Positions 23,533 to 62,201 of a DNA stretch of 64,000 bases are shown here, one piece after another. The DNA lies in NCBI GenBank assembly GCA_963837955.1, contig CAWIPH010000002.1, positions 10,966 to 74,965 of the forward strand, written 5' to 3'. Made by a program: the position numbers and the translations under genes. Within the stretch, counting starts at the first letter, position 1; every line of letters starts with the position of its first letter. The notes beneath the pieces are model-generated. The model worked only from the letters and a program-made list of their open reading frames with translations, made no database searches and was not told the DNA's origin. The stretch is from an uncultured Verrucomicrobiae bacterium. Lineage in GTDB: Bacteria > Verrucomicrobiota > Verrucomicrobiia > Chthoniobacterales > JAFAMB01.

Positions 23533-24390
23533 CTACAGCCGTTCCAAATAGACTCGGTACGGCGAATCGGGTAGGCTGGAAACCAGCTCCCTGAATTGTG
23601 CTCGATTCAAGAAGCCCATTTCCAGGGCGACCTGTTCGATGCAGCCAATCTTCAATCCCTGCCGCTTTTCGATGGTTGCAATGTAATTGCCGGCCTCCAG
23701 CAGACTCTCGTGCGTTCCGGTATCCAACCAGGCTACACCTTGTTCGAGAATTTTGACGGTCAACTCGCCTCCGAACAGATATGCACGCGCCAGATCGGTG
23801 ATCTCGAGCTCGCCCCGATCAGAAGGTTCCAAATTTTCAGCAATTTCGACGCAATGCTGATCGAACAAGTACAGACCAGCTACCGCATAGTTGCTCTTCG
23901 GATGCTTCGGTTTTTCCTGCAGTCCCGTGGCTTGCCCGAACCTATCAAATTCAACCACGCCATAGCGTTCGGGATCGCTGACCGGATAGGCGAATATTGC
24001 GCCACCCTTGTCGATTCGTAGCGCTTCGCGCAAGAAGTCCAGGTTCCCGTGAAAGATGTTATCACCCAGGATCAGCGCAATCCCTTGATCACCAATAAAA
24101 TCGCTCCCGACGATAAACGCATGTGCAATACCGGCAGGTTTCGCCTGTTCAGCATAGGCAATGTTTAGTCCAAGCTTTGATCCATCTCCGAACAGCTCTC
24201 GAAACCTCGGCAAATCTCGTGGCGTCGAGATGAGAAGGATGTCGCGGATGCCCGCTTGCATCAATGTGGCCAAAGGATAGAAGACCAACGGTTTATCGTA
24301 AACGGGAAGAAGCTGTTTGCAGACGACGTCGGTGAGAGGATGGAGCCGCGTACCGGCGCCCCCCGCTAGGACGATCCCTTTAGTAATCAT
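23533..24390 (-). CDS. rfbA: Glucose-1-phosphate thymidylyltransferase
   Basis: MITKGIVLAGGAGTRLHPLTDVVCKQLLPVYDKPLVFYPLATLMQAGIRDILLISTP is the canonical RmlA/RfbA N-terminus. The protein is 285 aa. Confidence 0.9.
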   Translation of the reverse strand: MITKGIVLAGGAGTRLHPLTDVVCKQLLPVYDKPLVFYPLATLMQAGIRDILLISTPRDLPRFRELFGDGSKLGLNIAYAEQAKPAGIAHAFIVGSDFIGDQGIALILGDNIFHGNLDFLREALRIDKGGAIFAYPVSDPERYGVVEFDRFGQATGLQEKPKHPKSNYAVAGLYLFDQHCVEIAENLEPSDRGELEITDLARAYLFGGELTVKILEQGVAWLDTGTHESLLEAGNYIATIEKRQGLKIGCIEQVALEMGFLNRAQFRELVSSLPDSPYRVYLERL

Positions 24391-24404
24391 AGTTGGACCG
24401 AAGA

Positions 24405-24782
24405 GAAACTCACGCCAAGCGGCGAAAGAATCTCACGCAAAGACCCGGAGAATCTCACGCAAAGACGCAAAGACGCAAAGTTTTGAAAGGGAGTCCGGGC
24501 CGTCGAAAGCCACAGTGATTTGTGAGAAGTGATTGGTGATGGGGTGAAAATCCTCGCAAAGGTAGCGTAGCCTGATGCTCCGCCTCAGGAGATTGGCGCG
24601 CCTTGGATTCCTGAGGCGGAGCATCAGGCTACTCTGGCTTCGTTCCGCCCATAAAACGGCATCGACCGCATTGTCCGCTCAAACTTTGCGTCTTTGCGTC
24701 TTTGCGTGAGATTCGAATAAGGACCGGCGGGAGCCGATCCCTACCGGTCTTGGCGTGAGATTCTTCTTTGCGTGAGATCTCA
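24405..24782. repeat. ~380-bp nested palindrome built from 8-mer, 7-mer and TIR-like modules
   Basis: A perfect 31-bp inverted repeat pairs GAATCTCACGCAAAGACGCAAAGACGCAAAG (24450-24480) with CTTTGCGTCTTTGCGTCTTTGCGTGAGATTC (24684-24714). The central perfect hairpin pairs GTAGCCTGATGCTCCGCCTCAGGA (24567-24590) with TCCTGAGGCGGAGCATCAGGCTAC (24609-24632). GTGATTTGTGAGAAGTGATTGGTGA lies in between, and additional CTCACGC copies lie at both outer edges. Confidence 0.85.
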
Positions 24783-25226
24783 AATCTCGAAGGCCATGAC
24801 GGGACGCTCCCGGCTCTCATCGAGCATATCCTGGATCGATTTATTGCCGAACAGCTCCCGGAGCATTTCCCGGGCTTGCCGGATTACCGGTCGAAGGGGG
24901 CAGCGGAGCGGATCCGGACATCCGCATCGATCGGCCGATCTATCCAAAGCACAAGGCAGAGGAGCGATTTCGCCATCCAACAGTTCGATGATCTGCAACA
25001 TGGTCAATTCTGAGGCGCGTTTGCGCAGGGTATAGCCCCCGCCAACGCCACGTTTGCTTGAGAGAATGCCGTGGTTACGCAGGGCTAACAGAATTTGCTC
25101 GAGAAACTTAACCGGGATGTTACCTCGCTCGGAGAGCTCTTGAATCTGGTGAATTTTGCCGGGGGGATCTTGAGCGATAATGAATAAAGCGCGTAAAGCA
25201 TACTCCGCTTTCCGAGAAATCCGCAT
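24780..25226 (-). CDS. Rrf2-family transcriptional regulator (Cys-rich, possibly Fe-S binding)
   Basis: MRISRKAEYALRALFIIA...IPVKFLEQILLALRNHGILSSKRGVGGGYTL is the Rrf2 wHTH. It has a downstream Cys cluster, PCALDRSADRCGCPDPLRCP. Confidence 0.85.
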   Translation of the reverse strand: MRISRKAEYALRALFIIAQDPPGKIHQIQELSERGNIPVKFLEQILLALRNHGILSSKRGVGGGYTLRKRASELTMLQIIELLDGEIAPLPCALDRSADRCGCPDPLRCPLRPVIRQAREMLRELFGNKSIQDMLDESRERPVMAFEI

Positions 25227-25229
25227 AAT

Positions 25230-25520: not shown

Positions 25521-25600
25521 TAACGCCGGGAACGCCGGGAACGCCGGGAACGCCGTTATCGCCGGGAACGCGAAAACCGTGAGAAGTGATTGGTAAGACG
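25519..25600. repeat. 9-bp tandem array (GGGAACGCC) plus heptamer module
   Basis: GGGAACGCC occurs 3 times (25528-25554), followed by GTTATCGCC and GGGAACGCG and then GTGAGAAGTGATTGGTAAG. Confidence 0.85.
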
Positions 25601-25677
25601 TGCGAGCCAAAACACCGCGGCTCTTGCACCTTTAGCCTGAATATCCCGTGTTCGGTGTTCGATCTGCAATTTGCTAT

Positions 25678-26898
25678 TTACGATGCGTGCGCGGCGGGTC
25701 TACCGAAGGCGGCCGCCCGAAGCGCCTCCTCGTAGCCGTCAGTGATTCTTTCGAGATCGAACTTCTCCGCTGCAGACCAGCTGGCTTCGCGAATCTGCCG
25801 AAGCCGGTTGGGGTTGGTAAGCAGATCTCTGAGCTTGATGATCCAAGCCCCAGGGTTCTCAAGCGGGAGCAGCCATCCGCTAACACCGTCGGTAACGGTG
25901 TCATGAAGCGTCGGTAAATCTGAGGCGACCACGGCGAGCCCGAACTTTAACGCCTCTAAAACAGCGACAGATAAACCCTCCACCTTAGAGGGGAGAAGAA
26001 AGATGTCTGCCTCAGAGAGAAGCTGGTCGACAGCCTGCCGTGGGACCCAGCCGTGAAAGCGGACCCGACCCGTCAAGCCAGATTGAGCGAGACCCTGTTC
26101 AAGCTTTGGGCGCTCTTCTCCGTCCCCGACGATGTCAAACTCCCAAGTCAGATCCCGTAAGCCGGAGAGGACAGGTATGATGTAGTCCAGGTTCTTTTGT
26201 GGATTGAGCCTGCCCACGAAGATAAGCCTCGGCGTGCTCCCCTTCCGATCAGCGAGAGGTGGGCGCCCATTGAGGGCGATACCATTTGAGATCACGGTAG
26301 GGCTACGTCCGTAGGCCCGGTACGATAAATCGGCCACGAATTGGCTGACGGCGGTCACACCAGCAGCGCGTGACCAGATCGGCCAAATAGCCGGGCCGAG
26401 CCAGCGAAACAGATTGTTCGTTTGTTCCGGCACCGCGCCGGGGACGTCACCAAGATGCGCCGTGATCACATAAGGCAGTCGCCCCAAACTGGCTGCCGCC
26501 AAAGCCACGGCGCCGGTGGGAACCGCAAAGTGCGCATGGAGGACGTCGGGCCTAAACTGCCTCAGATGGCCCAAAGTGGGACCAAAGCTTGTTACGACAT
26601 ATCCGCCCATTTCCAAGGGCGAGCAACGGTCAGGTCGAGAACGGAAACCCCAGGTTCGAAAAACCTCCACTCCGGCGTCAATTTCCTGGCTAGTCTGTCC
26701 GGCCAGACGCACCGTTTGAGCCCGAATATGATGACCACGCCGGGCAAGGGCCTCTGCCACATCTTTTGCGACCCGGCCTCCGCCACCGCCGACAGGAGGC
26801 CACTCGTAGCACAGCACCAGAATCCGCAGCGGGCGCAGCGGATCCTGCGAGAGTGATGTATTGAGTTTTGAGTTTTGAGTTCGGGGTCTTGGGTCCAA
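25678..26898 (-). CDS. Glycosyltransferase family 4 (GT-B)
   Basis: RILVLCYEWPPVGGGGGRVAKDVAEALARRGHHI is the N-domain Gly-rich loop. PSKVEGLSVAVLEALKFGLAVVASD...VTDGVSGWL is the C-domain. The track start is a TTG that lies inside a GAGTTTT heptamer repeat (26863-26881), so the true start is probably further downstream. Confidence 0.85.
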   Translation of the reverse strand: MDPRPRTQNSKLNTSLSQDPLRPLRILVLCYEWPPVGGGGGRVAKDVAEALARRGHHIRAQTVRLAGQTSQEIDAGVEVFRTWGFRSRPDRCSPLEMGGYVVTSFGPTLGHLRQFRPDVLHAHFAVPTGAVALAAASLGRLPYVITAHLGDVPGAVPEQTNNLFRWLGPAIWPIWSRAAGVTAVSQFVADLSYRAYGRSPTVISNGIALNGRPPLADRKGSTPRLIFVGRLNPQKNLDYIIPVLSGLRDLTWEFDIVGDGEERPKLEQGLAQSGLTGRVRFHGWVPRQAVDQLLSEADIFLLPSKVEGLSVAVLEALKFGLAVVASDLPTLHDTVTDGVSGWLLPLENPGAWIIKLRDLLTNPNRLRQIREASWSAAEKFDLERITDGYEEALRAAAFGRPAAHAS

Positions 26899-27261
26899 GG
26901 TGCCTCTGCCGTCCTATTCGGCCGAAGATTGTTTTTTCGCGAGAAATTTTAGTTCCTGGCTTGATACCATCTAGGATTTGCGCGGCACAGGAAGCACATA
27001 GGCATCAAGCTAACCTGCGGTAATGCTGCCCCTGATCGGTAGGGCGAAAGCTTGAGGCGGTATCGGCCGCCTCGGCTTGAGCCGTCTCTCGGCTCCAACG
27101 CACCGGTTTTAACCACTTTCATCCTGCTCTCAGAAAATGGGACGAGAAAGATTGATTCCCGCGTGCGGCTCAAACCCGGCGCGAACCACGCAAGCAGACA
27201 TTGCAACGCCTTCCACGCGCCGAAGTTTTCGCCCTACCAATTATGCCTGACGCTCGCAGCC

Positions 27262-27808
27262 CTAAATCTTACGCAAACGAGCGGCGAGGACCGCAGTGCT
27301 ACCGCTCACGATGGCAATGAGTGCGATGATCCAGCGGATGCCGAAAATCGCCACTGCGGACTGGCCAAGAAATACAAAAAGCAAAAATACCAAAAGCAAC
27401 CATCCAATCGCTCCGATGGAGCTTACGATCAGAAACTTCGGGGTCGGATACCTTAACAAGCCGGACACAATAAGAAGCGCGGTGCGCGTTCCGAGAACCA
27501 ATCGGCTAAAAATAAGCGTGAATCCGCCGTATCGCTCAAACCAACGCGATGCTCGATGGGTTTTATGCAGCGGTAGTAGTCGCTGAGCCCAGCGCGATTC
27601 CAAAACGCGCCTTCCACCAAGGTACATTACTCAAATAGATCCCGATATCGCTCACCCACATTCCCAAAAAACATGCGGCAAATGTCAGCCAATAAGGAAA
27701 TACACCGTTGTAACCCAGCAACGCGCTGCTCACCACAGCCGAATCTTCCTGGACGAATGCCAGGAAAAACAAACCAATCAAAACAGAGTAATTGGGGTGA
27801 TCCATCAT
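27262..27808 (-). pseudogene. DedA/VTT-domain membrane protein, split by a frameshift near 27600-27635
   Basis: ORF 27563..27808 reads ...LTFAACFLGMWVSDIGIYLSN. ORF 27262..27627 reads YLGGRRVLES...FERYGGFTLIFSRLVLGTRTALLIVSGLLRYPTPKFLIVSSIGAIGW. Together they form one DedA-type protein, but they lie in different frames. Confidence 0.6.
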
Positions 27809-28079
27809 GAGCTGAGCTTTAGCCTCTTTGGGCGAGCGGATCCTTCTTCAATTCGTCCTTATAGTCGTCGATGCGTCGAATTACCCCTGATGGGGAGGGC
27901 ACGCGTCCTCGCGCGCCGTCGTTGTTTCACCCAGGGACGAAACCAGACGATGGAACGCAGATGTCAGCATCGTGGGTTAGGCAGCGGATTGCGGGGACGC
28001 AATCCCTCCCGGTGTTTACTCGTTGGATCGCCCTGGGAATCGAGGACGACGACGAGGACGAGAACGAATATTCTCGCAA

Positions 28080-29933
28080 TCACCCCGCCGGCACCATCTC
28101 TGAATGAGCTAACAGCCACGCGCACCACAGCATTCCACGGTCATCCCTTTTCCCAGCCTGGTGTTCCGATAACCGCCCCTTTATCCATTCCCAATCCAGC
28201 ATGGATGGCGATGAGCTGCTGGCAAAACGCAGATCACCAGACTGGAACCAGCGTCCGATCGGAACCCCGAATCCTTTCTTTGGCCGATCAATGATGGCAT
28301 CCGGAACAAGTCCGCGCACGGCCTTTCTCAAAAGATGCTTGGTGGTTCCGCCGCGGAGTTTAAAAGAACTCGGAATCCGTCGGACAAAATCCACAACATT
28401 GACGTCCAGGAACGGGCAACGCACCTCCAAACCATGGGCCATGCTGGAGCGGTCCACTTTGACCAGAATGTCGTCTTGTAAATAGAGTCGGATATAAAAT
28501 TGCATGGTCCGCTCGACATCGTTCTGCGCGGTAGATTCGTTCCAGGCTTCGGTGGCTTCAGAGTAAAGTTCTTCGGTGTCAATTTTTTGCCGGAACAGCC
28601 GCCCTATTTCGTCTGGGTCGAGCGGTCCCATCCACGCCGGCATCCAATGGGACCTATGGTATGACAGACCTCTCAAGGTACGTTTCACGCGAAAATCTAA
28701 ACTCATATTCACGTGAGAGACCGGCATGTGTTCGACCGCCATCCGCGCCGTCCGATGCACAAGCTGGGGAACGAGTTGCTGGTAGGGGACCGCGAAGCGG
28801 AGAGCACGGAACGGATCATAGCCGGCAAACAGTTCATCGCTGGCGTCGCCGGTCAGGACTACCTTGACGTCTTGCCGCGCGAGTTGGGCCACCAATCCAG
28901 TCGGCAGGATCGAACTGTCACCCATGACCTCATCCAGCTGTTTCGAGGTAGCCGAACACAGCTCCAGACAGCGCTCGATCGAGAATATTTCTTCTCTGTG
29001 CTTAGTACCGGCGGAAGTAGCAGCCAACCGGGCATAATCACGCTCATCGAAGCTCTTTTCAGTAAAACCGATGCTGAACGATCGGATCCCCTGGTGATGA
29101 CGCGAAGCGAGCTTAGCTACTAACGTGGAATCGATACCTCCGCTTAAGAATAGACCTACCGGCACATCCGCATTGAGGCGAACTCGCACAGCCTCATCCA
29201 ACAGGCGGATTAGCTCGGCTCCCCACTGTTCTTCCGCATCCTTTGGAACGGTGGCAAACGGAGCGAACTGAAATTCCCAATACTTGACGATTTTTGGGAT
29301 AAGATCAGAGACCGAAATGCGCAACCAATGCCCGGCCGGAAGTTTTCGTACTCGGGCGAGCATCGTTAGCGGTGCTGGTATAAAACCGTAAGCGAAGAGC
29401 TTTTGCAGAGCTACCGGATCTAACGAAGCTGGAACTCGCGGGTGTTGGCGCAGTGCGGTGAGCTCTGAAGCGAAAGCAAAACAGCGCTCATCCGAGTAAT
29501 AGAATAAGGGTTTTTTACCAAATCGGTCGCGGCTCAAAAAGAGTTCGTTCTTGGCCCGATCGAAAATGGCGAATGCCCACATGCCGTTGAGCCGGTCGAG
29601 CATGGCCGGTCCCCACTCCCGGTATCCATGCAGCAGAACTTCGGTATCCGAATGATCGGTCTGAAATCGATGTCCTGCCTTTTCCAGCTCCTGGCGGAGC
29701 TCGACATGATTGTAAATTTCGCCGTTGAAGGTGATCACCAACGCCTCATCGGCGGTTTTCATCGGCTGACTACCGCCGGCGAGATCGACAATCGAGAGAA
29801 TTCGGTGCCCGAAAAAGACCTGATCTCCAGTCCAGAATCCTTCGCCATCCGGACCGCGATGATTCACTCGAGCCGTCATCCGGACCAAGTCCTCGCGGTT
29901 TCCTTCTCCAACGAATCCGGCGATCCCGCACAT
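28080..29933 (-). CDS. Asparagine synthase (glutamine-hydrolysing) family amidotransferase
   Basis: It has the family start MCGIAGFVG (ATG at 29933), the PP-loop SGGIDST, and a length of ~617 aa. The 44-codon upstream extension in the track ORF is a translation of the repeat array. Confidence 0.9.
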   Translation of the reverse strand: MCGIAGFVGEGNREDLVRMTARVNHRGPDGEGFWTGDQVFFGHRILSIVDLAGGSQPMKTADEALVITFNGEIYNHVELRQELEKAGHRFQTDHSDTEVLLHGYREWGPAMLDRLNGMWAFAIFDRAKNELFLSRDRFGKKPLFYYSDERCFAFASELTALRQHPRVPASLDPVALQKLFAYGFIPAPLTMLARVRKLPAGHWLRISVSDLIPKIVKYWEFQFAPFATVPKDAEEQWGAELIRLLDEAVRVRLNADVPVGLFLSGGIDSTLVAKLASRHHQGIRSFSIGFTEKSFDERDYARLAATSAGTKHREEIFSIERCLELCSATSKQLDEVMGDSSILPTGLVAQLARQDVKVVLTGDASDELFAGYDPFRALRFAVPYQQLVPQLVHRTARMAVEHMPVSHVNMSLDFRVKRTLRGLSYHRSHWMPAWMGPLDPDEIGRLFRQKIDTEELYSEATEAWNESTAQNDVERTMQFYIRLYLQDDILVKVDRSSMAHGLEVRCPFLDVNVVDFVRRIPSSFKLRGGTTKHLLRKAVRGLVPDAIIDRPKKGFGVPIGRWFQSGDLRFASSSSPSMLDWEWIKGRLSEHQAGKRDDRGMLWCAWLLAHSEMVPAG

Positions 29934-29940
29934 AAACTCA

Positions 29941-30136
29941 GCCCATACCTGTGGCGGGGGGAAATAGCAAATAGCAGATAGCAGGGGGGAGAGAACGCCG
30001 GGAGCGCACGGGAACGCCGGGAACGCCGGGAACGCCAAAGCCAAACACCAAACGCCAAACGCCAAACGCCGCGATATCGGCAGCTAATCGGCCGTTTAAC
30101 CTGTATTCCTTTGCGCCTTTGCGTCTTTGCGTGAGG
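29941..30136. repeat. Intergenic spacer composed almost entirely of concatenated short tandem-repeat modules
   Basis: AAATAGC/AGATAGC occurs 3 times (29962-29984) and G(G/A)GAACGCC-type 9-mers occur 5 times (29991-30036). CCAAAC(G/A) occurs 4 times (30041-30068) and CTTTGCG(N) 8-mers occur 3 times (30108-30131). The array ends in GTGAGG directly at the stop codon of the next gene. Confidence 0.9.
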
Positions 30137-31183
30137 TTATTGTCGCTTCCAGGCTTCGAAGATCTGCAGAAACGTCTCTTCCAGTCCCTTGGTGATATCC
30201 CAATTCGGGTAATGCGAACGCATCTTCGATAAATCGGAGATATAACAGATGTGATCACCCCGCCGATTCTGATCGATGTATTCGTACGACATCTGTTTGC
30301 CTGAGATTTGCGCGATCAGATCGAACGCTTCCAGGATCGAAATCGAGTTGCGGCGACCGCCACCGAGATTATAGACCTCACCAATGCGGGGTTGTTGGAT
30401 GAATTCATTCATGAACCGAGCCACATCCAAAGAATGGATGTTGTCGCGGACCTGTTTCCCTTCATAACCGAAGATCTTGTAGGTTTTTCCTTCGACGTTG
30501 CATTTAATCAAGTAGCTGAGGAAACCGTGGAGCTCGACCCCGCAATGGTTCGGCCCCGTGAGGCAACCTCCCCGCAAACAACAGGTCGCCATCTGAAAAT
30601 AGCGGCCATATTCTTGGACCATCACATCGGCTGCTACTTTGGAGGCTCCGAAGACGGAATGCAGACAGTGATCGATCGGAAAACTCTCCCTGATTCCATC
30701 GGCGTATTCTGCGTCGGCATAATCCCAACGGGTTTTCTTTTCGACCAGGTTGAGCCGATTCGGGCCATCGCCGTAAACTTTATTGGTAGACATATGAACG
30801 AACGGCGCCTCGGGACACCATTGCCGGGCCGCCTCGAGCAAATTGAGTGTACCGACTGCGTTCACATCGAAATCGTCGAAAGGACGCGACGCAGCAAGAT
30901 CATGGCTTGGCTGAGCGGCGGTGTGGATGACAGCGTCCGGCCGGATCTTTTGAACCAGTTGGAGCACAGCGTTGCGGTCACGGATATCAACTTGATGATG
31001 ATGAAAACATTCAAAAGTCGTCCGGAGTCGCTGCGTGTTCCAGGAAGTGTCCCCCGGCGGACCAAAGAATTCGGCTCGCAGATTATTCTCGATCCCATGG
31101 ATCTCGTTCCCTTCGCGAGCGAAGAAAGCGACTACCTCGCTGCCGATTAGACCGCTGGATCCGGTTACAAGTAGTTTTTTCAC
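30137..31183 (-). CDS. NAD-dependent nucleotide-sugar epimerase/dehydratase (extended SDR)
   Basis: It has [18 protein letters not shown] (GxxGxxG), the catalytic YGASKVAAD (YxxxK), and a length of 348 aa. Overall it resembles the CDP-paratose-2-epimerase-like subgroup. Confidence 0.85.
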
Positions 31184-33744: not shown

Positions 33745-33749
33745 ATTTT

Positions 33750-40530: not shown

Positions 40531-40552
40531 GAAGAATCGAGTTGGTCCTTTT

Positions 40553-45419: not shown

Positions 45420-45447
45420 GATGGATTGGAACTGCGAAATTCCTTCT

Positions 45448-49210: not shown

Positions 49211-49645
49211 GTTGATCTGGTGGCAAATTGACCGATAGACCAATCGAAGTTAGCGATTGAATAGACGGCCCTCCAGACGAGATCGATGACCTCAAATGCC
49301 CACTACCCCCTTAATGGGCAAGGTCAGAAGTGCGCTGGGTTTCGTTTCTTAGCACCTCTCCACTAGTTCCTCTAGAAGAGGGAAGCCATCTCGGTGTCCG
49401 GCAAACACCCCACGAAGCCCCTCGATCGCGCCTTGAGCTTCACGACGAATAGCCAACGGTCTGCCACTCCAAAAACGGGGCTAGAAGACAGGAAGCGGAA
49501 CAACTAAATATCCTGCATTCCCGCCCCGTCCCATATTGAACATCTCATTTTTCAGGCGAAGCAATCATTCGGGCCGCGCTCAACGGATGTTTTGAAAGTA
49601 TTTGCATTTCGAGCTGCCGCGATCTTCTCTCGGTACAGTTTCCTT

Positions 49646-51160: not shown

Positions 51161-51285
51161 GACGGCGCCCACGATTCTCCTCGGGCCTTTTCCTTAGATG
51201 ACTGAACCATCTCAGATTTTGGGATTCACCGGAACGGCTTTTGCATTCTGGATTGAGGAATGCTCATATCAAGGTTTGCGATTAT

Positions 51286-53095: not shown

Positions 53096-53101
53096 GCCGC
53101 T

Positions 53102-55513: not shown

Positions 55514-55636
55514 GAAAGGTTCACCTCCTAAACCCGTAACAGCCTCATTAGAAGCTGATCCGGCCCAGTATGTCAAAATCCTGCCTCCTCGGCGGCTGAA
55601 GCTCTGGCCTGTTTCATGCTAGGGAGGTAGGGAACC

Positions 55637-56527
55637 ATGGATGTGGCACATTTCCCCCTCTTCCTTCACTGTCATATCCCAAAGACGGCCGGTGTAAGTG
55701 TAGGCCAGCTTCTTGATTCCACTTTTCATCCTTATCACTTCAATCATTACCATTCTGATCCCCTCTATGTTTTGACTCCTCCAAGGCTCGAGACACTTCT
55801 CAAGATCACACCAACGCTAAGGTCAATCTCTTCGCATAGCCTGCGCACCTTTCCGCGTCAGGTCTGCGGTCGGAAAACCTGTTATATCACTTTTCTTCGT
55901 GATCCTACGGCTGCGTTTGTCTCGCTGCTGAAATATTGCCGTGCTGAATACCGAGCAGGACACCTTTCGGCGGAAGCGCGATGGATGTGGCCGGATGACA
56001 CTCCAACCCGAAGTCTGCGCGATCTTGCTGAATGGTTTCTCGACCAGATCGGAGCTGAGAATTCCTATTCGCCGCAAACGCGTTTTTTCTGTTCTCCGGA
56101 ATCAATGCGAAAAGCTGGTTTCACGGTGGAACATCAGTATGGCGAAGATTGCTTCGAAGTGGCCTCTATGATCTTAGAAAGATTTTTGTTTGTCGGGGTT
56201 ACCGAGCAGATAGAGAAAAGCGTCAAGCTGCTGATCGGCAAGCTAAAGAAACTCGGCATCCAGGTACAGGAACCCGCGTTACCCCACTCGAATCGATCCA
56301 GTTCGAGCGAGGATCTTTCCTGGCTGACGATGAGGGACAAGGTCGGAAAACGTGTGCTAACCTGCAACGAGGTTGACCAGCAGCTTTACGATCGATTCCG
56401 GCTCGCTCTGGAACGCGAATATGCTCGGTTTCAGGAATCGGCTGAAATTTTGGATATTTCCGAGGCTGAACAAACTGCCGGGCCGATCTGTGAATGGGCT
56501 GCGTCTAGGTTTCTGGAGAAGGTTTAA
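55637..56527 (+). CDS. Sulfotransferase family-2-like protein (intact paralog of 37543..38387)
   Basis: HCHIPKTAGVSVGQLL resembles the 5'-PSB loop. YITFLRDPTAAFVSLL resembles the 3'-PB motif. An RBS GGGAGG precedes the ATG. Confidence 0.65.
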   Translation: MDVAHFPLFLHCHIPKTAGVSVGQLLDSTFHPYHFNHYHSDPLYVLTPPRLETLLKITPTLRSISSHSLRTFPRQVCGRKTCYITFLRDPTAAFVSLLKYCRAEYRAGHLSAEARWMWPDDTPTRSLRDLAEWFLDQIGAENSYSPQTRFFCSPESMRKAGFTVEHQYGEDCFEVASMILERFLFVGVTEQIEKSVKLLIGKLKKLGIQVQEPALPHSNRSSSSEDLSWLTMRDKVGKRVLTCNEVDQQLYDRFRLALEREYARFQESAEILDISEAEQTAGPICEWAASRFLEKV

Positions 56528-56581: not shown

Positions 56582-57982
56582 TTACCAGAGACCGGCGGTG
56601 AGCAGGGCCTCTCGGGCAAACACCGCGTCCTGTTGAATGAGTCGACCGGTTGGAGAGTGTCGCCAACAACCGGCATTGTCGAAATACTCAAACCCGAGGT
56701 CGCGAAGCTTTGCCATCATTTCGAAAAATGTCTTTGCCGTCGGCGCATATCGGCCCATCGAGAGTTCAAGGCAAATAACATCGACTTGCTGCAAGAATCG
56801 AGTGGCGCCATCCAGGACGAGATGCTCCCCGAACTGTACATCGATTTTCAGCAGCCCTTTCCCCGAAATCGATTGTTGAGAACTGATTTCGTCCAGCGTG
56901 CGGACCGGAACCAGAACACGCTCCCACTGACGGTCGGGGGAGTGCTCGGCACCATCCAGAAAGCTACTTGAATAAAGATCTGGAGAGACATTCAATTCTG
57001 TCTCTGAGTTTTTGTCACCCGCGGCACTTGCGATAGCGACATATTCCGGGTGCAGCGTGTATATAGAGTTATCCAGTTGCCGGTATTTCTCGAGCAACGG
57101 CTCGATCAAATAGAACCGGCTATTTGGGAAAACTCGGCTAGCGATGAGAGACCAGTAGCCGGTTGAGGCTCCGACATCGACGATAAATTCTGGCCGATAT
57201 CCCGCCGCTCTTAGCCGATAGAGAAAATGGAAACATGGGTGCATGCTCCAGTGGATGCTTCTTGGTGCCGATGGATCTACGTAGGGGGCCGTACGATCTG
57301 CAGTTTCTCGACTCGCACGCTTCTCGGGCTCATCGCTAGCCGGAAAACCGTCCTCCAAGGAATCCAGGATGAGGCGCAGGATTTCGTTACTTTGCCGCGA
57401 GCCCTTTTCGCCGGGGGTTTTCTCGGCGAGTGAGAATTCCGGCAAGAGCCAGACAGGTTTACCCACGCTGGTTTGCACATAGGAGCGAGTCGACGCCGAC
57501 ACAGCGAAGGTGATTCTGGCCTTCCCGAGAGCCTCTGCCAAAAGGCCGCCGGCCCGGTTATCCTTTTGAAAGCAGTTGTCCTGGGCCAAGACGAGAGCCA
57601 TCGGCGATCCCGTAATATCGGCGGTCGCAGTTGCCGCGAAAAGACCTTCGGCATCCTTGGCTACAGCCACTACCCGATCGATTCGATATCTATTCAGAAT
57701 CTCAGCAATCCGGAAATAGGCCAAGGACCGCCCTTTGGTATTTCCCTCAATTAATGGAATGTCCGGAATGGGTAACTCTGTTTCGGCCTCTTTGGCGTCG
57801 ACGAAGAGGGCGACCAAGTTGTTTCCGGTAAATAATCGCGAGCTATCGAGGTGAGCGAATGACTGACTATGCGGATCGGATGGGACCACCAGAAAACAAG
57901 CCGCGGACGATCGAGGTTCGTCGGCCCTTATTTTGGATTTCCCTGCGGTGCCGAAAAATTTATGAAAATCGAGCGATGCCAT
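56582..57982 (-). CDS. Two-domain protein: unknown ~230-aa N-terminal domain fused to a FkbM-type methyltransferase
   Basis: The C-terminal half reads FIVDVGASTGYWSLIASRVFPNSRFYLIEPLLEKYRQL...LLKIDVQFGEHLVLDGATRFL...VICLEL, which is FkbM-like. The N-terminal half reads ...VALFVDAKEAETELP...RVVAVAKDAEGLFAATATADITGSPMALVLAQD... and has no recognised family. Confidence 0.7.
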   Translation of the reverse strand: MASLDFHKFFGTAGKSKIRADEPRSSAACFLVVPSDPHSQSFAHLDSSRLFTGNNLVALFVDAKEAETELPIPDIPLIEGNTKGRSLAYFRIAEILNRYRIDRVVAVAKDAEGLFAATATADITGSPMALVLAQDNCFQKDNRAGGLLAEALGKARITFAVSASTRSYVQTSVGKPVWLLPEFSLAEKTPGEKGSRQSNEILRLILDSLEDGFPASDEPEKRASRETADRTAPYVDPSAPRSIHWSMHPCFHFLYRLRAAGYRPEFIVDVGASTGYWSLIASRVFPNSRFYLIEPLLEKYRQLDNSIYTLHPEYVAIASAAGDKNSETELNVSPDLYSSSFLDGAEHSPDRQWERVLVPVRTLDEISSQQSISGKGLLKIDVQFGEHLVLDGATRFLQQVDVICLELSMGRYAPTAKTFFEMMAKLRDLGFEYFDNAGCWRHSPTGRLIQQDAVFAREALLTAGLW

Positions 57983-58022: not shown

Positions 58023-58781
58023 TCAATGACGCCCCACAATAAAATACCGTGGATCTTGGAACAACGGGAGATCGCTCCGCGCGAAAAGAAGGTCGAATTG
58101 CCAGAAGGCGCTGTCTACTTCGCGATAGAGGATGTCAAAAACGTCCAGGGGACGAAAGCCTAAGTCGAGCATATAGCGGCAAAGGTCCCAGAATGGAACG
58201 GCTGGTCCGCCGAAGGTGAAATTGTAAGCCTCAATTACGATTATGTTCGTTTGTTTCAAGGTCTTGCTAGCGCCACTTAGGATGGGAATCTCGACTCCGT
58301 GGGTGTCCAGTTTGATCATGAACGGCCCGGGGAGCGATTGACTTTCTACCAGGCTGTCGATTGTGTTGACCGGACAAGGCTGGTAGTTCTGATTCAACGG
58401 ACTTTCAGCCAGATGGCCGACCAGTGGATCCGAGGCATCGAAATAAAGTTGGCCCGCCTTGGCTCCTACGGCGGTAACGGCAAAATGCCAGTTAGGGTTC
58501 TTCCGGCAGACCTCGGTGAGTTTCGGGAGATGAATTTGGTTTGCGTCTACCAGCAGATGCTCTCTACCGGGAAAATATCTGGCAAAAGCTTTAGACCAGA
58601 TGCCGTCAGAGGCGCCGATGTCGATCAACGATGCGATTTCGATCTGGTGACCCTGCAAACGACGGAGCGCGTCATCCCGAGTAGGTTCAGCACCTCCCAG
58701 CCGGTGAGCGCGCACCTGGATGCCAAATAATCGGCCGCAGATCGAGTTGATGATCGAAAACGCAAAGGCTACCAGGTTCAT
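58023..58781 (-). CDS. FkbM-family methyltransferase
   Basis: LIDIGASDGIWSKAFARYFPGREHLLVDANQIHLPKL...MIKLDTHGVEIPILSGASKTL...IIVIEAY matches the FkbM pattern. Confidence 0.75.
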   Translation of the reverse strand: MNLVAFAFSIINSICGRLFGIQVRAHRLGGAEPTRDDALRRLQGHQIEIASLIDIGASDGIWSKAFARYFPGREHLLVDANQIHLPKLTEVCRKNPNWHFAVTAVGAKAGQLYFDASDPLVGHLAESPLNQNYQPCPVNTIDSLVESQSLPGPFMIKLDTHGVEIPILSGASKTLKQTNIIVIEAYNFTFGGPAVPFWDLCRYMLDLGFRPLDVFDILYREVDSAFWQFDLLFARSDLPLFQDPRYFIVGRH

Positions 58782-58814: not shown

Positions 58815-60005
58815 TCAACTGAAAATGCGTTCGAATCGCTCATCGATCGGGTGACCGCATTCCAATGAACGCCAGATGAAGTCGGCCAACCCGTGCGAAG
58901 AAAACGCTGCGCTGAGTTGGTTGGCATGAATGCGGATCTCATTGAAACGGGACGGGCTGGTAACCTGGTGAACCGCCCTTTGGAGTGCGCCCGAATCGTA
59001 GGGACATGATGTCCCAAGATCAAGTTTGCGAACGAATTTGGCGGCCGCCGTTTCTTCGTGGCCAAGCACGATAATAGGAATATTGGCGGTGGCCATCAGG
59101 TAAATGATCCGGGACGGCAAGCTGGACTTGGCCAGCCAGTTGTGGCTGCTGCCTTTTTCTAACGTCCCGCTCGGAACGATCGCAAAATCGGCGTTGCGCA
59201 GCTCTTCCACCAGCTCCGGGTCGGGCAGCATCGAGCGAAGGTAGATACCTTCGGACTCCAGTTCCGGAGGATCGAGGACAATAAATGGTTTCCCCGCGTT
59301 GCCGAACCAGTCGACCGATAGACCGGAAGCCCGGACAGTTGCTCGAAAACTGTTTAGCATGTCCAGGCTCCAGACGTTTCCAATCAAAGCTCCTCTAGGT
59401 GATTGGCGCTTATATCGAGCCAACCCGCTCGGGGCGAACAATGCAGGATTGGCCACCGGGGGTATAATCCAAAATTTAGTCTTAAACTTCTCACCGTAAG
59501 CGCGACAGAGAGGCTCCGAAATCGCGAAGCGAATATTGGCTTGGGCGACCAAGGCTGACATCAAGTCATCAGATATTTCCTGTACGTGAATGTTTTGATC
59601 ATCCATTACGTAGAGGGCGATCGGCGCGTCAAAAATCTGGGCTGCCGCTAAAGTGGAGAGGACATCGTCGGGGTAGAAGGGCACCGAAAGAATTCTTCTT
59701 ATCCCGGCCCCGCTCAGCTGGGCTCGGATTTCCTTCCGAGCGCTTTCCAAAGAGCCGCCCGGATGCTCTACGTGAAGAGAGTGATCACCGATCTCATTCC
59801 GCTCGAAAAACTTCCGAGAATGGCAAATCAGGAGTTGTTCTTCTTCTTGAAAGATGTTCTTTAGCAGCGCTCCGGTACCGTGACGAAGAGAGACTTCCGC
59901 GTGAGTTACTAACAGAGATGCCCGATCGAAATCGGCCAGATCGCGTTGAGCGGCGGCTTTTGCTGGGGCGCCTTTCCAGAATTTTCTAATAACCTTCAAC
60001 ATCAA
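58815..60005 (-). CDS. Uncharacterised protein, paralog C of the triplicated family (intact)
   Basis: It carries EVSLRHGTGALLK, VMDDQNI, SSLPSRIIYLMATANIPIIVLGHEETAAAKFVRKL and ADFIWRSLECGHPIDERFERIFS. It is 396 aa and is the first gene of a minus-strand operon with two FkbM genes. Confidence 0.65.
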   Translation of the reverse strand: MMLKVIRKFWKGAPAKAAAQRDLADFDRASLLVTHAEVSLRHGTGALLKNIFQEEEQLLICHSRKFFERNEIGDHSLHVEHPGGSLESARKEIRAQLSGAGIRRILSVPFYPDDVLSTLAAAQIFDAPIALYVMDDQNIHVQEISDDLMSALVAQANIRFAISEPLCRAYGEKFKTKFWIIPPVANPALFAPSGLARYKRQSPRGALIGNVWSLDMLNSFRATVRASGLSVDWFGNAGKPFIVLDPPELESEGIYLRSMLPDPELVEELRNADFAIVPSGTLEKGSSHNWLAKSSLPSRIIYLMATANIPIIVLGHEETAAAKFVRKLDLGTSCPYDSGALQRAVHQVTSPSRFNEIRIHANQLSAAFSSHGLADFIWRSLECGHPIDERFERIFS

Positions 60006-60095
60006 CTCGCCTGGTAGTATTTGCGATTTACTGGCTGTTCAGCCTTACTTAGAGCAGACTTCCGACAAATCCTTCAGCAAAATCCACAGACTTCT

Positions 60096-61322
60096 ATGGG
60101 ATTGGACGTTCCAGTTCTGTTTCTCATTTTTAACCGTCCCGAATTGACGCACCAAGTCTTTCAAACGATTCGCGCCTCTCGGCCTGCCCGACTCTATATC
60201 GCCGCCGACGGGCCCCGAGCGGAGAAAGCCGGAGAGTGGAAGCTTTGCGCTGAAACCCGGGAGGTTGCAAAGAAAATAGATTGGTCCTGTGAGCTCAAAA
60301 CTCTGTTTCGAGACGACAATCTCGGGTGCGGACAAGCCGTCAGCGAAGCGATCGGTTGGTTTTTCGATCATGAGGAAAAAGGGATCATTTTGGAAGATGA
60401 CTGTCTGCCGGACGCGAGCTTTTATCCATTTTGTGGCGAAATGTTGGATCGATTTCAGGATGAGGATCGGGTTGGGTCGATTTCCGGGAACAACTTTTTG
60501 CCTCCTTCCTTGCATGCTTCTCAGCCTTATCTCTTCTCCAAGTACGTTCAAATCTGGGGTTGGGCGACCTGGAGGAGGTTTTGGAAGTTCTATGACTTTG
60601 ATCTGAAGGGCGAAGAAGAAGAATGGGAAAAGATCATTCGCCGGGTAAATCCCGTTGATAAGCACGCCCGTTATTGGCTCGAAATTTTTCGTGCGCTGCG
60701 ATCAGGGCTCATTGATACCTGGGATTACCAGGTGATGTTTTCCGCTTGGAAGGCCGACTTGGTTCACATTTATCCGAGTCGAAATCTCATGTCGAATCTT
60801 GGTTATGGCGACCATGCGACTCACACCAACTTCGAGAGCCCAGTCGCTCAGCTCGCGACCGGATCGATCGAGAATTTTCAGGTCACCCTTCCGGTGGTGA
60901 TTGATCCGATGCTCGATGACGCGACCTTCTATTTTCGGTTTCTTGAATCGCTGACCAACGTCTGGTGGTTGGAGCAGGCCTTGGACCTCACTGAGAAATT
61001 GGCTTGGAGCCGTTGGCAAATTAACCAAGCTCAAAAGGAAGTCACCCAGCTCAAGGAGGTCTGTGACGACCAGGCTCGACAGGTCGCGAAAATTGCGGCG
61101 ACCAGGTCCAGAGCAATCTACCGAACCAACCTGGTATTGTTGTTGTCGCACTGGGTCTATACAATGCGCGAAGCGTTAACGTTGGCTCGTACCCGATTCA
61201 ACCGAATGATTGGAAGACGGCGTCTGAGTGACCGAGGAACTTCTGGAACGGACACAGAGGAAAAGAAACAGCTCGTTTCGCCGGAAATCGAGCGAGCCGG
61301 CCGCGTTCATCCCGACCGATGA
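60096..61322 (+). CDS. GT-A-type nucleotide-diphospho-sugar transferase-like protein with a coiled-coil C-terminus
   Basis: VPVLFLIFNRPELTHQVFQTIRASRPARLYIAADGPR...GCGQAVSEAIGWFFDHEEKGIILEDDCLPDASFYPF includes a DxD-like EDD. The C-terminus is WQINQAQKEVTQLKEVCDDQARQVAKI. The start is set at the ATG at 60096. Confidence 0.6.
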   Translation: MGLDVPVLFLIFNRPELTHQVFQTIRASRPARLYIAADGPRAEKAGEWKLCAETREVAKKIDWSCELKTLFRDDNLGCGQAVSEAIGWFFDHEEKGIILEDDCLPDASFYPFCGEMLDRFQDEDRVGSISGNNFLPPSLHASQPYLFSKYVQIWGWATWRRFWKFYDFDLKGEEEEWEKIIRRVNPVDKHARYWLEIFRALRSGLIDTWDYQVMFSAWKADLVHIYPSRNLMSNLGYGDHATHTNFESPVAQLATGSIENFQVTLPVVIDPMLDDATFYFRFLESLTNVWWLEQALDLTEKLAWSRWQINQAQKEVTQLKEVCDDQARQVAKIAATRSRAIYRTNLVLLLSHWVYTMREALTLARTRFNRMIGRRRLSDRGTSGTDTEEKKQLVSPEIERAGRVHPDR

Positions 61323-61358
61323 CCTCTTTGGGAAGTTGCGAAGCTACGATCTAGTCTG

Positions 61359-62201
61359 ATGAAGACCAAGCATAAGATCGCAACGGCCAAGATCGCTTAC
61401 CGGGTCTTGCGCGGGTGTCGACGGGTGGTTGGTGCTGGTGACGAAGTAACGGTAACCCGCGGAAGGGTACGTTACCGTTTGGATCTCTCCCAGGGCATCG
61501 ATTTCGCCATCTTTCTTGGTCAATACGAACCTCAAACGATTGCTGCATGCCGGCGCCACATCCTACCGGGCCAAAATGTTTTGGATATCGGTGCTAACAT
61601 CGGAGCGCACACGTTGAATTTTGCTCGTCTGGTTGGTCGAGCTGGACACGTATATGCTTTTGAGCCGACAGATTTCGCTTTTTCCAAGCTGATTCGTAAT
61701 CTGAACCTCAATCCAGACTTAGTGTCGCGCGTCAGTGCCTTTCAATGTTTCCTGGGAGCCAAAGATGGAGTACCGACCAGCTCGCCGGTCTATTCAAGTT
61801 GGCCGTTGGTTGGAGGAACGGAACTCCACCAAAAACATTTAGGGCAACCGATGTCGATCAGCAAGAGTCGCCAGCGGACAATGGATAACATTCTGGCGGA
61901 GCATGGCCGGCCTAAGATTCACTTTGTGAAGCTCGATGTGGATGGATTCGAATGTGAGGTTCTCGCGGGCGCGCAAGAGATGATATCCCGCAATCCTCCA
62001 GTGTTTGTCATGGAGCTCGCTCCCTACGTTTTAGAAGAGCGGGGCGCATCGCTCGGAGAGCTGGTGGAATACTTTGTAAAGTTCGGATATAAATTTTTCC
62101 GTGAGCACGACGATGCCCCATTACCGCGAGAGGTTAAGCAACTCGCGGCACTCGTTGGCGATGGAGAGGGAATGAACGTAATTGCTCGGCCGGAATCGTG
62201 A
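61359..62201 (+). CDS. FkbM-family methyltransferase
   Basis: VLDIGANIGAHTLNFARLVGRAGHVYAFEPTDFAFSKLIRNL...HFVKLDVDGFECEVLAGAQEMI...VFVMELAPY matches the FkbM pattern. Confidence 0.8.
   Translation: MKTKHKIATAKIAYRVLRGCRRVVGAGDEVTVTRGRVRYRLDLSQGIDFAIFLGQYEPQTIAACRRHILPGQNVLDIGANIGAHTLNFARLVGRAGHVYAFEPTDFAFSKLIRNLNLNPDLVSRVSAFQCFLGAKDGVPTSSPVYSSWPLVGGTELHQKHLGQPMSISKSRQRTMDNILAEHGRPKIHFVKLDVDGFECEVLAGAQEMISRNPPVFVMELAPYVLEERGASLGELVEYFVKFGYKFFREHDDAPLPREVKQLAALVGDGEGMNVIARPES

Follow-up and report, generated by a model that had tools for sequence, protein, structure and literature searches.

Methyl-capped and multiply methylated O-polysaccharides made by the ATP-binding cassette (ABC) transporter route, a sulfated capsule exported by that route, and sulfated exopolymers of Verrucomicrobiota have all been described. 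A Wzt protein with a C-terminal binding domain exports only polymers capped at their non-reducing end, methylated sugars being documented caps (PMC9445017), and the methyl cap added by WbdD is a documented export signal (PMC3482155). Cobetia marina makes a sulfated capsule through a kpsMT ABC route (PMC11766843), and sulfated exopolymers are known from Pontiella, a member of the Verrucomicrobiota (PMC7356697). We analyzed a 64-kb stretch (hereafter the window) of contig CAWIPH010000002.1 from an uncultured Verrucomicrobiae soil bacterium of the order Chthoniobacterales. It carries a glycan island of ∼37–39 kb, spanning 25.7–62.2 kb plus rmlA at 23.5 kb, whose genes are those of a cell-surface sugar polymer. 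On balance, we favor reading it as a composite cell-envelope glycan island built on a Wzm/Wzt pathway typical of the lineage, the predicted product being a capped, methylated and possibly sulfated glycan.

Domain calls across the window come from an open reading frame (ORF) listing and hidden Markov model (HMM) scans with Pfam and NCBIfam. Glycan-biosynthesis genes fill 23.5–62.2 kb almost wholly. The original prediction of an ABC-transporter-dependent glycan locus with an exceptional density of methyltransferases and some sulfotransferases was borne out: most of its methyltransferase and sulfotransferase calls, and the ABC2_membrane and Wzt_C domains, were supported by the scans. An independently assembled Logan contig (run ERR11571140) gives identical gene calls over 51.2–57 kb.

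The export genes define the pathway. Two adjoining genes encode the permease and the ATPase; L001, L002 and further L numbers denote related loci on other contigs, these two from Verrucomicrobiota/Chthoniobacterales metagenome-assembled genomes.

52298–53095, + strand: Wzm, ABC-2 permease (PF01061, 81.5 bits; 70% identical in L001 and L002)
53102–54538, + strand: Wzt, nucleotide-binding domain plus C-terminal carbohydrate-binding domain (ABC_tran 81 bits; Wzt_C 49.5 bits)

The carbohydrate-binding domain (CBD) of Wzt occupies residues 318–418 (PF14524 Wzt_C, 49.5 bits against a gathering score of 30.4); the protein is of the TagH/Wzt type in NCBIfam and is 64–72% identical to those of L001 and L002. 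Scanning window ORFs of at least ∼120 aa, we found no Pfam or NCBIfam match to Wzx, Wzy, Wzz or Bac_transf (phosphoglycosyl transferase), which agrees with the earlier statement that these proteins, including a polyprenyl-phosphate hexose-1-P transferase, are missing here. The locus therefore shows the gene content of a capped Wzm/Wzt pathway: an adjoining permease and ATPase, a CBD on Wzt, and no Wzx, Wzy or Wzz in the window. Judged by sequence and position, the candidate cap-making enzymes are the FkbM-type protein encoded at 54578–55576, which lies beside Wzt in L001 and in the Logan contig, and the two-domain protein encoded at 56582–57982.

A second ABC-2 exporter had also been predicted, and it is present in the left part of the locus.

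35641–36411, + strand: ABC ATPase, DrrA/NodI/GldA-like, with no C-terminal CBD (PF00005)
36398–37612, + strand: ABC-2 permease in about the first 260 aa (ABC2_membrane 59 bits, residues 20–216)

The ATPase matches TIGR01188 drrA (E 2.8e-57) and NodI (E 4.5e-47), both under the equivalog cut-offs. The permease ORF has no stop codon after its membrane domain and reads through a 9-bp repeat array into an (RRQ)n/(RRE)n tail and ∼100 low-complexity residues (TRF). This tail (37187–37612, the last ∼140 codons) overlaps the 5′ end of the following gene and probably does not belong to the protein.

The glycosyltransferases number about seven: two GT4 enzymes, one GT13-like GT-A enzyme, one ArnC-like GT2 and three members of a family that we call famA, a label for three "hypothetical" paralogs that are 33–37% identical in all-against-all BLAST. 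A polytopic membrane protein may be added to them.

25678–26898, − strand: GT4 glycosyltransferase (Glycos_transf_1 115 bits, Glyco_transf_4 83 bits)
45373–46623, + strand: GT4 glycosyltransferase (Glycos_transf_1 89 bits)
38717–39805, − strand: ArnC/GtrB/PgfS-like GT2 (PF00535, 125 bits)
60021–61322, + strand: GT13-like GT-A glycosyltransferase, start probably at 60096 (AlphaFold model and Foldseek)
32326–33744, + strand: famA paralog 1, GT-B-fold family (36% identical to 58815–60005 over 374 aa)
46722–47879, + strand: famA paralog 2 (33–37% identical to both other paralogs)
58815–60005, − strand: famA paralog 3, the reference member (AlphaFold model and Foldseek)
49592–51160, + strand: polytopic membrane protein (hydropathy scan: about eight hydrophobic segments or more, with the C-terminal part soluble)

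The original prediction had counted only four glycosyltransferases. Three of these, the GT4 pair and the GT2, are recognized by Pfam and the fourth, at 60096–61322, by structure prediction; the three famA paralogs had been missed. They have no Pfam, NCBIfam or PDB sequence match, and across the family none of 57 members passes the threshold of any Pfam glycosyltransferase model (best E 0.037). We built an AlphaFold (AF2) model of the reference member from 57 homologs (pLDDT 91.5, pTM 0.89). Foldseek returned 277 PDB matches at E ≤ 0.001, and the top 50 listed are almost all GT-B glycosyltransferases. The best is the methylmannose-polysaccharide mannosyltransferase ManT (7qsg, 1e-12), followed by MshA, PimA and BshA. 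The ManT match is one of fold, at 13% identity, and its E-value compares with 5e-12 to 1e-10 for other GT4 matches. The model superposes on MshA, PimA and ManT at TM ∼0.6–0.65, and its two predicted Rossmann-like domains superpose on solved GT-B enzymes, as expected for the GT-B superfamily. We conclude that famA is a GT-B-fold family, not demonstrably part of GT4, whose modeled structure makes its members probable glycosyltransferases. An HMM search of 1.84 billion representatives found 292 clusters at E ≤ 1e-30, which describes a compact family of ∼300 clusters when grouped at 50% identity.

The protein encoded at 60021–61322 has no Pfam match to any glycosyltransferase family. Its AF2 model (pLDDT 84) best matches POMGnT1 and GnT-I of GT13 in Foldseek (2.5e-10), with a TM of only 0.4–0.5. 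E100-D101-D102 is invariant and residues 298–377 form one long C-terminal helix of ∼80 residues; measured against GT13 (PF03071), the EDD motif and the fold agree at that TM and the sequence family does not. Its gene is divergently paired with famA in L001 and L017.

The GT2 enzyme (38717–39805) resembles ArnC over its full length (NF007986, E 7e-59, under the equivalog cut-off) and PgfS (E 1e-49), and its orthologs in L017 and L020 are 80–82% identical. A GT2 domain, two C-terminal transmembrane segments (255–281 and 284–319) and this similarity together give the ArnC/GtrB architecture, which is that of a polyprenyl-phosphate sugar synthase, as predicted from sequence, and not of a chain-elongating enzyme. 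The polytopic protein (49592–51160) scores 24.4 bits to DUF6056, below the gathering score of 27, and may act as a periplasmic glycosyltransferase of GT-C-like type or as an enzyme resembling ligases. PDB sequence searches gave nothing useful for famA, the GT13-like protein, the possible FkbM-like protein encoded at 44487–45419 or this membrane protein, which has no PDB sequence relative.

Ten methyltransferases are supported by HMMs, five of FkbM type and five of class I (S-adenosylmethionine-, SAM-dependent); the total is 10–11 if 44487–45419 is counted.

33645–34782, + strand: FkbM methyltransferase with N-terminal heptad-rich segment, frameshifted (PF05050 34 bits, partial, in 34189–34782)
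54578–55576, − strand: FkbM methyltransferase with N-terminal heptad-repeat segment (PF05050 37 bits)
56582–57982, − strand: N-terminal domain of ∼250 aa plus C-terminal FkbM (PF05050 52.5 bits, residues 269–433)
58023–58781, − strand: FkbM methyltransferase directly downstream of famA paralog 3 (PF05050 41 bits)
61359–62201, + strand: FkbM methyltransferase at the right edge of the locus (PF05050 69 bits, full-length domain)
44487–45419, + strand: possible FkbM-like protein (PF05050 E 0.015, 15.9 bits against a gathering score of 22.7)
41665–42435 (ORF from 41503), + strand: class-I SAM methyltransferase (Methyltransf_25 65 bits)
42519–43196, + strand: class-I SAM methyltransferase (Methyltransf_25 62 bits, Methyltransf_11 58 bits)
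43540–44319, − strand: TIGR04325-family methyltransferase (202 bits against a cut-off of 80; no Pfam match)
48200–49210, + strand: class-I methyltransferase, Methyltransf_9/CmoB-like fold (PF08003 45 bits against a gathering score of 23.8)
51241–52032, + strand: Methyltransf_24 methyltransferase (PF13578 58 bits; orthologs 37–40% identical in L020 and L021)

All five class-I enzymes of the original prediction were supported (45–202 bits), and so were five FkbM genes, which exceed the PF05050 gathering score of 22.7 with 34–69 bits. Two FkbM details changed. The gene placed at 33750–34782 is two ORFs in different frames, 33645–34205 and 34189–34782. Because both align to consecutive parts of the intact paralog 54578–55576 in all-against-all BLAST, we regard it as a frameshifted gene, the shift lying near 34185–34195. 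The possible sixth member, 44487–45419, stays below threshold; in hhalign against the FkbM profile of the window it reached a probability of 38% (E 3e-4), with IDVDGND aligned to the K/D-x-D-x-x-G-x-E motif.

Orthologs of 54578–55576 are 40%, 45% and 31% identical in L001, L017 and L021, and the gene is kept beside Wzt in relatives; the independent gene call in the Logan contig is 311 aa long. The N-terminal domain of 56582–57982 is conserved. It is weakly similar to the N-terminal half of famA, with a weak BLAST match to paralog 2, and in L021 it is joined to a different FkbM domain (48% identical). A faint match of the same gene to RfbT (PF05575, E 0.0099) is under threshold. The FkbM gene 58023–58781 has orthologs in the same position, 77% identical in L017 and 93% in L019.

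A methyltransferase gene lies directly after each famA paralog on the same strand, in three of three cases: 32326–33744 is followed by FkbM 33645–34782, 46722–47879 by 48200–49210, and 58815–60005 by FkbM 58023–58781. Elsewhere the two are joined in one protein. Five of the eight long famA members scanned are fused to FkbM domains, and the relatives P0003 and P0005–P0007 to Methyltransf_24; the famA domain also occurs in relatives with other glycosyltransferase, Capsule_synth, pyruvyltransferase and TPR modules. This recurrent adjacency and fusion argues that glycosyl transfer and O-methylation are coupled.

Some of these enzymes also carry repetitive helical segments. A 21-bp (7-codon) tandem repeat of four copies at 46803–46885 encodes N-terminal (RRIDDRL)4 heptads in famA paralog 2, and a 21-bp repeat at 55376–55415 encodes HLGRLEN/HLGRLES heptads at the N-terminus of FkbM 54578–55576 (TRF). 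Taken with the 80-residue helix of the GT13-like protein, the predicted heptads of 46722–47879 and 54578–55576 suggest coiled-coil-mediated enzyme assembly. They recall, by resemblance, the coiled-coil organization of WbdD and WbbB.

Three sulfotransferase genes had been predicted.

34889–35638, + strand: Sulfotransfer_1-type sulfotransferase (PF00685, 26.7 bits against a gathering score of 22; RSASTL and FRDLR motifs)
55637–56527, + strand: Sulfotransfer_2-type sulfotransferase, intact (PF03567, 24.2 bits against a gathering score of 22; HIPKTAGVS and FLRDP motifs)
37543–38387, + strand: Sulfotransfer_2-type sulfotransferase, frameshifted (paralogy to 55637–56527; HVPKTAGTS and FLRHP motifs)

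The first two pass Pfam marginally, and the third, which has no Pfam match of its own, is frameshifted and was assigned by paralogy. The 5′-PSB and 3′-PB motifs that bind 3′-phosphoadenosine 5′-phosphosulfate (PAPS) are readable in all three. The ORFs 37543–38328 and 37878–38387 are the halves of the frameshifted gene, 49% and 34% identical to 55637–56527 in two frames (BLAST). Its ortholog in L020, P0267, is intact at 402 aa (69% and 62% identical across the two frames) and places the frame switch near 38000–38025. A T9 run at ∼37971 was considered as the site of the shift and rejected: the P0267 alignment puts the switch elsewhere, with no long homopolymer. Neither frameshift of the locus (34185–34195 and 38000–38025) falls in a long homopolymer; both are single-base and both lie in the left-hand module, and they could be real pseudogenes, reflecting decay of a duplicated module, or assembly errors.

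The 55637–56527 family has ∼90 homologs, mostly unannotated; a metagenome scan with the sulfotransferase gave no matches. The same genome contig encodes, outside the window, an intact 309-aa paralog of the Sulfotransfer_2-like enzyme (P0255, 42% identical). Together with the two window copies, the genome thus has at least three, besides the Sulfotransfer_1-type gene 34889–35638. Two or three copies stand in tandem in the related soil contigs L020 (7976–11605) and L022 (10001–12244). Since Pfam picks up just a part of these copies, with faint scores, the number of sulfotransferases in the lineage is probably underestimated by automated annotation.

These counts bear directly on the polymer that had been deduced. 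With ∼7 glycosyltransferases against 10–11 methyltransferases and three sulfotransferases, the ratio of tailoring enzymes to glycosyltransferases is about 2:1 (∼1.6–1.7:1 for intact genes) and not 3:1. Because the 3:1 figure came from missing the three famA paralogs, the conclusion drawn from it, a short-repeat or homopolymeric glycan, loses its basis: ∼7 glycosyltransferases allow a complex repeat unit or several products. Nor does dense O-methylation follow from gene counts, as one or more methyltransferases of Wzt-CBD systems act only at the chain terminus (PMC9445017).

Genes for sugar precursors complete the island.

23533–24390, − strand: rmlA, RmlA glucose-1-phosphate thymidylyltransferase (TIGR01207 equivalog, 403 bits against a cut-off of 361; PF00483)
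28080–30065, − strand: AsnB-like glutamine amidotransferase (Asn_synthase 292 bits)
30137–31183, − strand: short-chain dehydrogenase/reductase (SDR) nucleotide-sugar epimerase-like enzyme (PF01370; CDP-tyvelose 2-epimerase 1orr, E 1.5e-37)
31234–32196, − strand: aldo/keto reductase (PF00248, 173 bits)
40075–40530, + strand: small cupin protein (WbuC-like TIGR04366, 26.5 bits against a cut-off of 42, sub-threshold)
40553–41668, + strand: DegT-family aminotransferase, perosamine-synthase-like (PF01041, 375 bits; perosamine synthetases 3bn1 and 3dr7, E 5e-85)

The cupin, DegT and methyltransferase genes (40075–42435) form a triad kept in L017 at 61–81% identity, where the cupin (76% identical) adjoins DegT. 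The PDB relatives of the methyltransferase of this triad (41665–42435) are the N-methyltransferase 5bsz, the N,N-dimethyltransferase 3bxo, CalS10 (6uk5) and the dTDP-3-amino-3,6-dideoxyglucose N,N-dimethyltransferases 3pfg and 6m83, the closest set being DesVI, TylM1 and CalS10. These relatives and the conserved triad argue that at least one "tailoring" methyltransferase probably works on a nucleotide sugar, its predicted product being an N-methylated amino-deoxyhexose. The AsnB-like protein, 64% identical in L017 and 84% in L020, might serve in uronamide or amidino formation. Its ortholog alignments begin at residue 42–45; translation probably starts near 29933, because the ORF as listed runs at its 5′ end through a 9-bp array. 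Assignment of 30137–31183 as RmlB or GMD was rejected, because its scores stay under the equivalog cut-offs and no solved structure is closer to it than that of CDP-tyvelose 2-epimerase.

We then asked how much of this arrangement recurs. The famA, GT13-like and sulfotransferase families consist mainly of unannotated proteins from soil metagenomes and from Chthoniobacterales/Verrucomicrobia. The related loci hold the following genes:

L001: Wzm, Wzt, FkbM, famA, GT13-like
L017: FkbM, GT13-like, famA, two more FkbM, ArnC-like GT2, methyltransferase, DegT, cupin, a second GT13-like gene and AsnB, the whole set packed in ∼11 kb
L021: famA, several FkbM and class-I methyltransferases, Wzm, Wzt with CBD
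L020 and L022: sulfotransferase paralogs in tandem, two or three of them, with neighboring genes for GT2 and for FkbM or Methyltransf_24

The synteny comparison shows a core (famA, FkbM, GT13-like, Wzm/Wzt with CBD, Methyltransf_24, cupin-DegT-methyltransferase, ArnC-like GT2 and AsnB) that recurs across the Chthoniobacterales/Verrucomicrobiota contigs L001, L017 and L021; GtrA-like genes are present in L017 and L021. These gene sets argue that heavy methyl-tailoring is a lineage-wide theme and that sulfotransferases are accessory, found in a subset. By gene content, the core is expanded and rearranged in the window, where its left module (famA, FkbM, sulfotransferases and the second ABC exporter) is a partial duplication.

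Taken together, we favor a model in which the GT4, GT13-like and famA enzymes would assemble the polymer on the cytoplasmic side of the membrane, on a polyprenyl carrier; the initiating transferase would be encoded elsewhere. The famA paralogs would act paired with methyltransferases, so that added sugars become O-methylated, and PAPS-dependent sulfotransferases would place sulfate on some residues. A methylated cap at the non-reducing end, added by an FkbM enzyme encoded near Wzt (54578–55576 and 56582–57982 are the candidates), would halt elongation, and export would follow once the CBD of Wzt has read this cap, as it does in E. coli O8/O9a and in Aquifex aeolicus. The triad of cupin, aminotransferase and N-methyltransferase-like enzyme would supply an (N-methyl)amino-deoxyhexose. 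As an optional decoration, the ArnC-like GT2, possibly with 49592–51160, may add a lipid-linked sugar in the periplasm. The DrrA/NodI-like ABC module at 32.3–38.4 kb contains both of the frameshifted genes and may serve another product whose pathway has partly decayed.

Several observations weigh against this model. The window encodes no initiating transferase, no WaaL ligase, no outer-membrane export component and no PAPS-synthesis gene, so that lipid A core, protein or a lipid could be the acceptor. Initiating enzymes and ligases are often encoded away from O-antigen clusters, so that finding no WecA/WbaP-type initiating transferase and no WaaL in the window does not exclude membership of the pathway. 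The ATPase 35641–36411 is not Wzt/KpsT-like, which makes a single-product model insecure and more than one product plausible. In famA, the invariant and near-invariant columns of the C-terminal domain contain no conserved Glu of the EX7E motif that marks GT4, and what is conserved instead is an HGTG loop and an MDDQN motif; the case for catalysis therefore comes from the fold. The Pfam scores of sulfotransferases 34889–35638 and 55637–56527 lie 2–5 bits over the gathering score. Because two left-module genes are frameshifted, some of the apparent tailoring capacity may have been lost, or else there may be errors in the sequence. Finally, we found no paper on Chthoniobacterales surface-glycan chemistry or linking Chthoniobacterales with sulfotransferases; nor did our literature search find anything that combines FkbM, a sulfotransferase and an ABC transporter.

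Other readings were weighed as well; they are not mutually exclusive with the composite island or with each other, and the probabilities that we attach to them overlap. The best surviving, unlikely but deserving serious weight, is that the island is a mosaic in which two, three or more independent systems lie side by side: a Wzm/Wzt O-polysaccharide-like system at ∼44.5–62.2 kb; the DrrA/NodI-like ABC module at 32.3–38.4 kb, which with its own GT-B, FkbM and sulfotransferase genes would export a sulfated or methylated glycolipid or oligosaccharide; and an ArnB/ArnC-like route at 38.7–43.2 kb that would bring a lipid-linked amino sugar onto lipid A or another acceptor. The ATPases do belong to different subfamilies, and the left module duplicates the right-hand set (a GT-B paralog, a paralog of the 54578-type FkbM and a Sulfotransfer_2 paralog). 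The ArnC-like GT2 sits beside a DegT aminotransferase as in arn operons, the coding strand switches at 32.2/32.3, 38.4/38.7, 39.8/40.1, 43.2/43.5 and 44.3/44.5 kb, and L017 packs the same genes in a different order within ∼11 kb. However, in L017 the ArnC-like GT2, cupin-DegT-methyltransferase, famA, FkbM and GT13-like genes are tightly contiguous, and Wzm/Wzt lies less than 5 kb away in L001 and L021. This contiguity argues for one functional unit at the core, and no second set of initiation or ligation genes is present.

A bolder form of the composite island, to which we give a rather low probability, is an assembly line specific to Chthoniobacterales, which rank with the most abundant bacteria of soils. 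In it, famA modules paired with or fused to FkbM would alternately add and methylate sugars, as in mycobacterial polymethylated polysaccharides, but of a polymer that is also sulfated and is exported by a cap-reading Wzm/Wzt. If true, it would yield an amphiphilic surface glycan patterned with methyl and sulfate groups, a chemistry so far undescribed for the ABC route.

Less probable still is the product originally proposed, one short-repeat or homopolymeric glycan made by all 39 kb and densely O-methylated and sulfated along its whole length. The 10–11 methyltransferase and three sulfotransferase genes are contiguous with Wzm/Wzt, and the famA/methyltransferase pairing would fit alternating glycosylation and methylation as in the mycobacterial methylmannose polysaccharide, whose ManT (7qsg) is the top fold match. 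Yet 7qsg is not distinguishably better than the other GT4 matches, and with ∼7 glycosyltransferases rather than four, the simple-backbone argument for a single densely modified polymer is gone. Two ABC exporters of different subfamilies, two frameshifted tailoring genes and at least one methyltransferase (41665–42435) that looks like a nucleotide-sugar N-methyltransferase all speak against it, as does the restriction of methylation to the chain terminus in systems with a CBD-bearing Wzt (PMC9445017). It is similarly improbable that the Wzm/Wzt-type exporter serves a glycan on protein (an S-layer or other envelope glycoprotein) or a free capsule or exopolysaccharide: the window has no recognizable WaaL-type ligase, 49592–51160, with no assigned family, could be oligosaccharyltransferase-like, and next to the locus lie genes for a secreted M10 peptidase and a signal-anchored protein, but no oligosaccharyltransferase (PglB, PglL, Wzy_C) HMM match and no KpsC/S/D/E or Wza/Wzc capsule export component was found in the window, and ligase and initiating enzyme are commonly encoded outside O-antigen clusters.

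The surroundings of the island are of a different kind. The left flank holds unrelated genes (an Nramp transporter, a two-component system, MgtA, a Na/Pi transporter, BlaR1/BlaI-like proteins, SDRs and EmrAB); to the right are the secreted M10 peptidase and the signal-anchored protein, which has no assigned family. GC content is slightly lower within the glycan locus (∼0.50–0.53) than upstream (0.52–0.56). The GC content and the parallel with sulfated exopolysaccharides had led us to consider a cyanobacterial origin, which we rejected once the best relatives of Wzt proved to come from Verrucomicrobiota/Chthoniobacterales. In the left flank, two paralogous SDR oxidoreductases (6610–7359 and 7518–8276, both best matched by NF005075) adjoin genes for a SnoaL-like protein and a PIG3-type quinone oxidoreductase, in what seems to be a small redox cluster unrelated to the glycan locus. 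At 12483–14822, the gene for a BlaI/Penicillinase_R-type repressor precedes that for a 641-aa BlaR1-like sensor carrying HEAT/NblB-like repeats; this signal-transducing pair is likewise unrelated to the locus.

At the left edge, an Rrf2-family regulator (24780–25226) stands between rmlA and the first glycosyltransferase gene, separating rmlA from the other locus genes; it may control the locus or be unrelated. The ∼1.2 kb between that GT4 gene and asnB (26899–28079) has a longest ORF of 134 aa (27052–27456), for which we found no Pfam match. The interval, which may have a regulatory role or be what is left of a gene, has no Rfam match, and no RNA family of Rfam matched anywhere in the window. 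A 9-bp tandem repeat, (GGGAACGCC)n with the degenerate forms GACAACGCC and GAGAACGCC, forms arrays inside the glycan locus at 25522–25571, 29993–30070, 37187–37316 and 40061–40078. They stand at gene ends or between genes, always on the + strand regardless of the orientation of flanking genes. The repeat matches 14 times (≤3 mismatches) against 0.09 expected, with none elsewhere in the window and none in the 20 related loci checked. A regulator-binding array and a contingency repeat are both possibilities.

If the composite island makes the predicted glycan, abundant but poorly cultured soil bacteria wear a heavily O-methylated, partly sulfated polysaccharide coat, with effects on surface hydrophobicity, on recognition by phages and predators and on how long microbial carbohydrate persists in soils. 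More tangible is what the locus offers enzymology: famA, recurrently fused to FkbM, and the Sulfotransfer_2-like clade are candidates for new glycan-tailoring activities. The locus also illustrates that glycosyltransferase counts made with HMMs alone can badly understate backbone complexity.

How does the locus compare with known systems? It resembles E. coli O8/O9a (WbdA/WbdD), the Aquifex aeolicus WzmWzt system and the P. aeruginosa common polysaccharide antigen in having Wzm and a CBD-bearing Wzt and no Wzx/Wzy. It also shares with O8/O9a-type systems methyltransferases encoded beside the transporter, enzymes with helical or coiled-coil extensions and, by prediction, a methyl cap (PMC9445017, PMC3482155). 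It differs in having 10–11 methyltransferases instead of one to three, in its sulfotransferases and in the absence of a WbdD-like kinase domain. Where those systems have WbdA-type GT4 tandems, it has famA and a GT13-like GT-A enzyme, together with a second, DrrA/NodI-like exporter.

The ABC route and a perosamine-synthase-like aminotransferase are shared with the perosamine O-polysaccharides of Vibrio cholerae O1 (rfb, RfbT/WbeT), Brucella and Caulobacter. A further common point would be terminal O-methylation by an FkbM-related enzyme, 56582–57982 showing a faint, sub-threshold RfbT match. Unlike those loci, the window shows neither a GDP-mannose 4,6-dehydratase nor an N-acyl or N-formyl transferase; an N-methyltransferase-like enzyme lies beside the aminotransferase, and there are many more tailoring genes. 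As in the Arn and Gtr systems (ArnB-ArnC-ArnT; GtrA-GtrB-GtrC), a DegT aminotransferase occurs with an ArnC-like GT2 bearing transmembrane helices, and the polytopic 49592–51160 could fill the ArnT/GtrC role. However, no ArnA, ArnD or ArnT homolog and no GtrA-like gene was found in the window, and 49592–51160 has only its sub-threshold DUF6056 match.

With the mycobacterial 3-O-methylmannose polysaccharide the locus shares a GT-B enzyme that goes with dedicated O-methyltransferases, ManT (7qsg) being the top structural match of famA. The mycobacterial polymer is cytoplasmic and not exported. Here, the methyltransferases are of FkbM or other types, sulfation is predicted and Wzm/Wzt implies export; the locus does not belong to that pathway, and the resemblance is one of logic. 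Like Cobetia, it has sulfotransferase genes inside a polysaccharide cluster with ABC export. The Cobetia cluster contains KpsMTED/KpsSC and PAPS-synthesis genes, whereas this one has Wzm/Wzt with a CBD and, in the window, no kpsC/S/D/E and no cysDNC/cysQ. Unlike the enzymes of Cobetia and Pontiella, its sulfotransferases fall in a small, mostly unannotated Sulfotransfer_2-like clade.

We conclude, from gene content throughout, that the locus encodes a variant of the known ABC-transporter pathway and not a new kind of system. Its chemistry had been called rarely documented for bacterial surface polymers of this route; Cobetia marina (PMC11766843) and Pontiella (PMC7356697) provide precedents. 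What is unusual is the combination and the load of tailoring genes, plus two enzyme families missed by current annotation.

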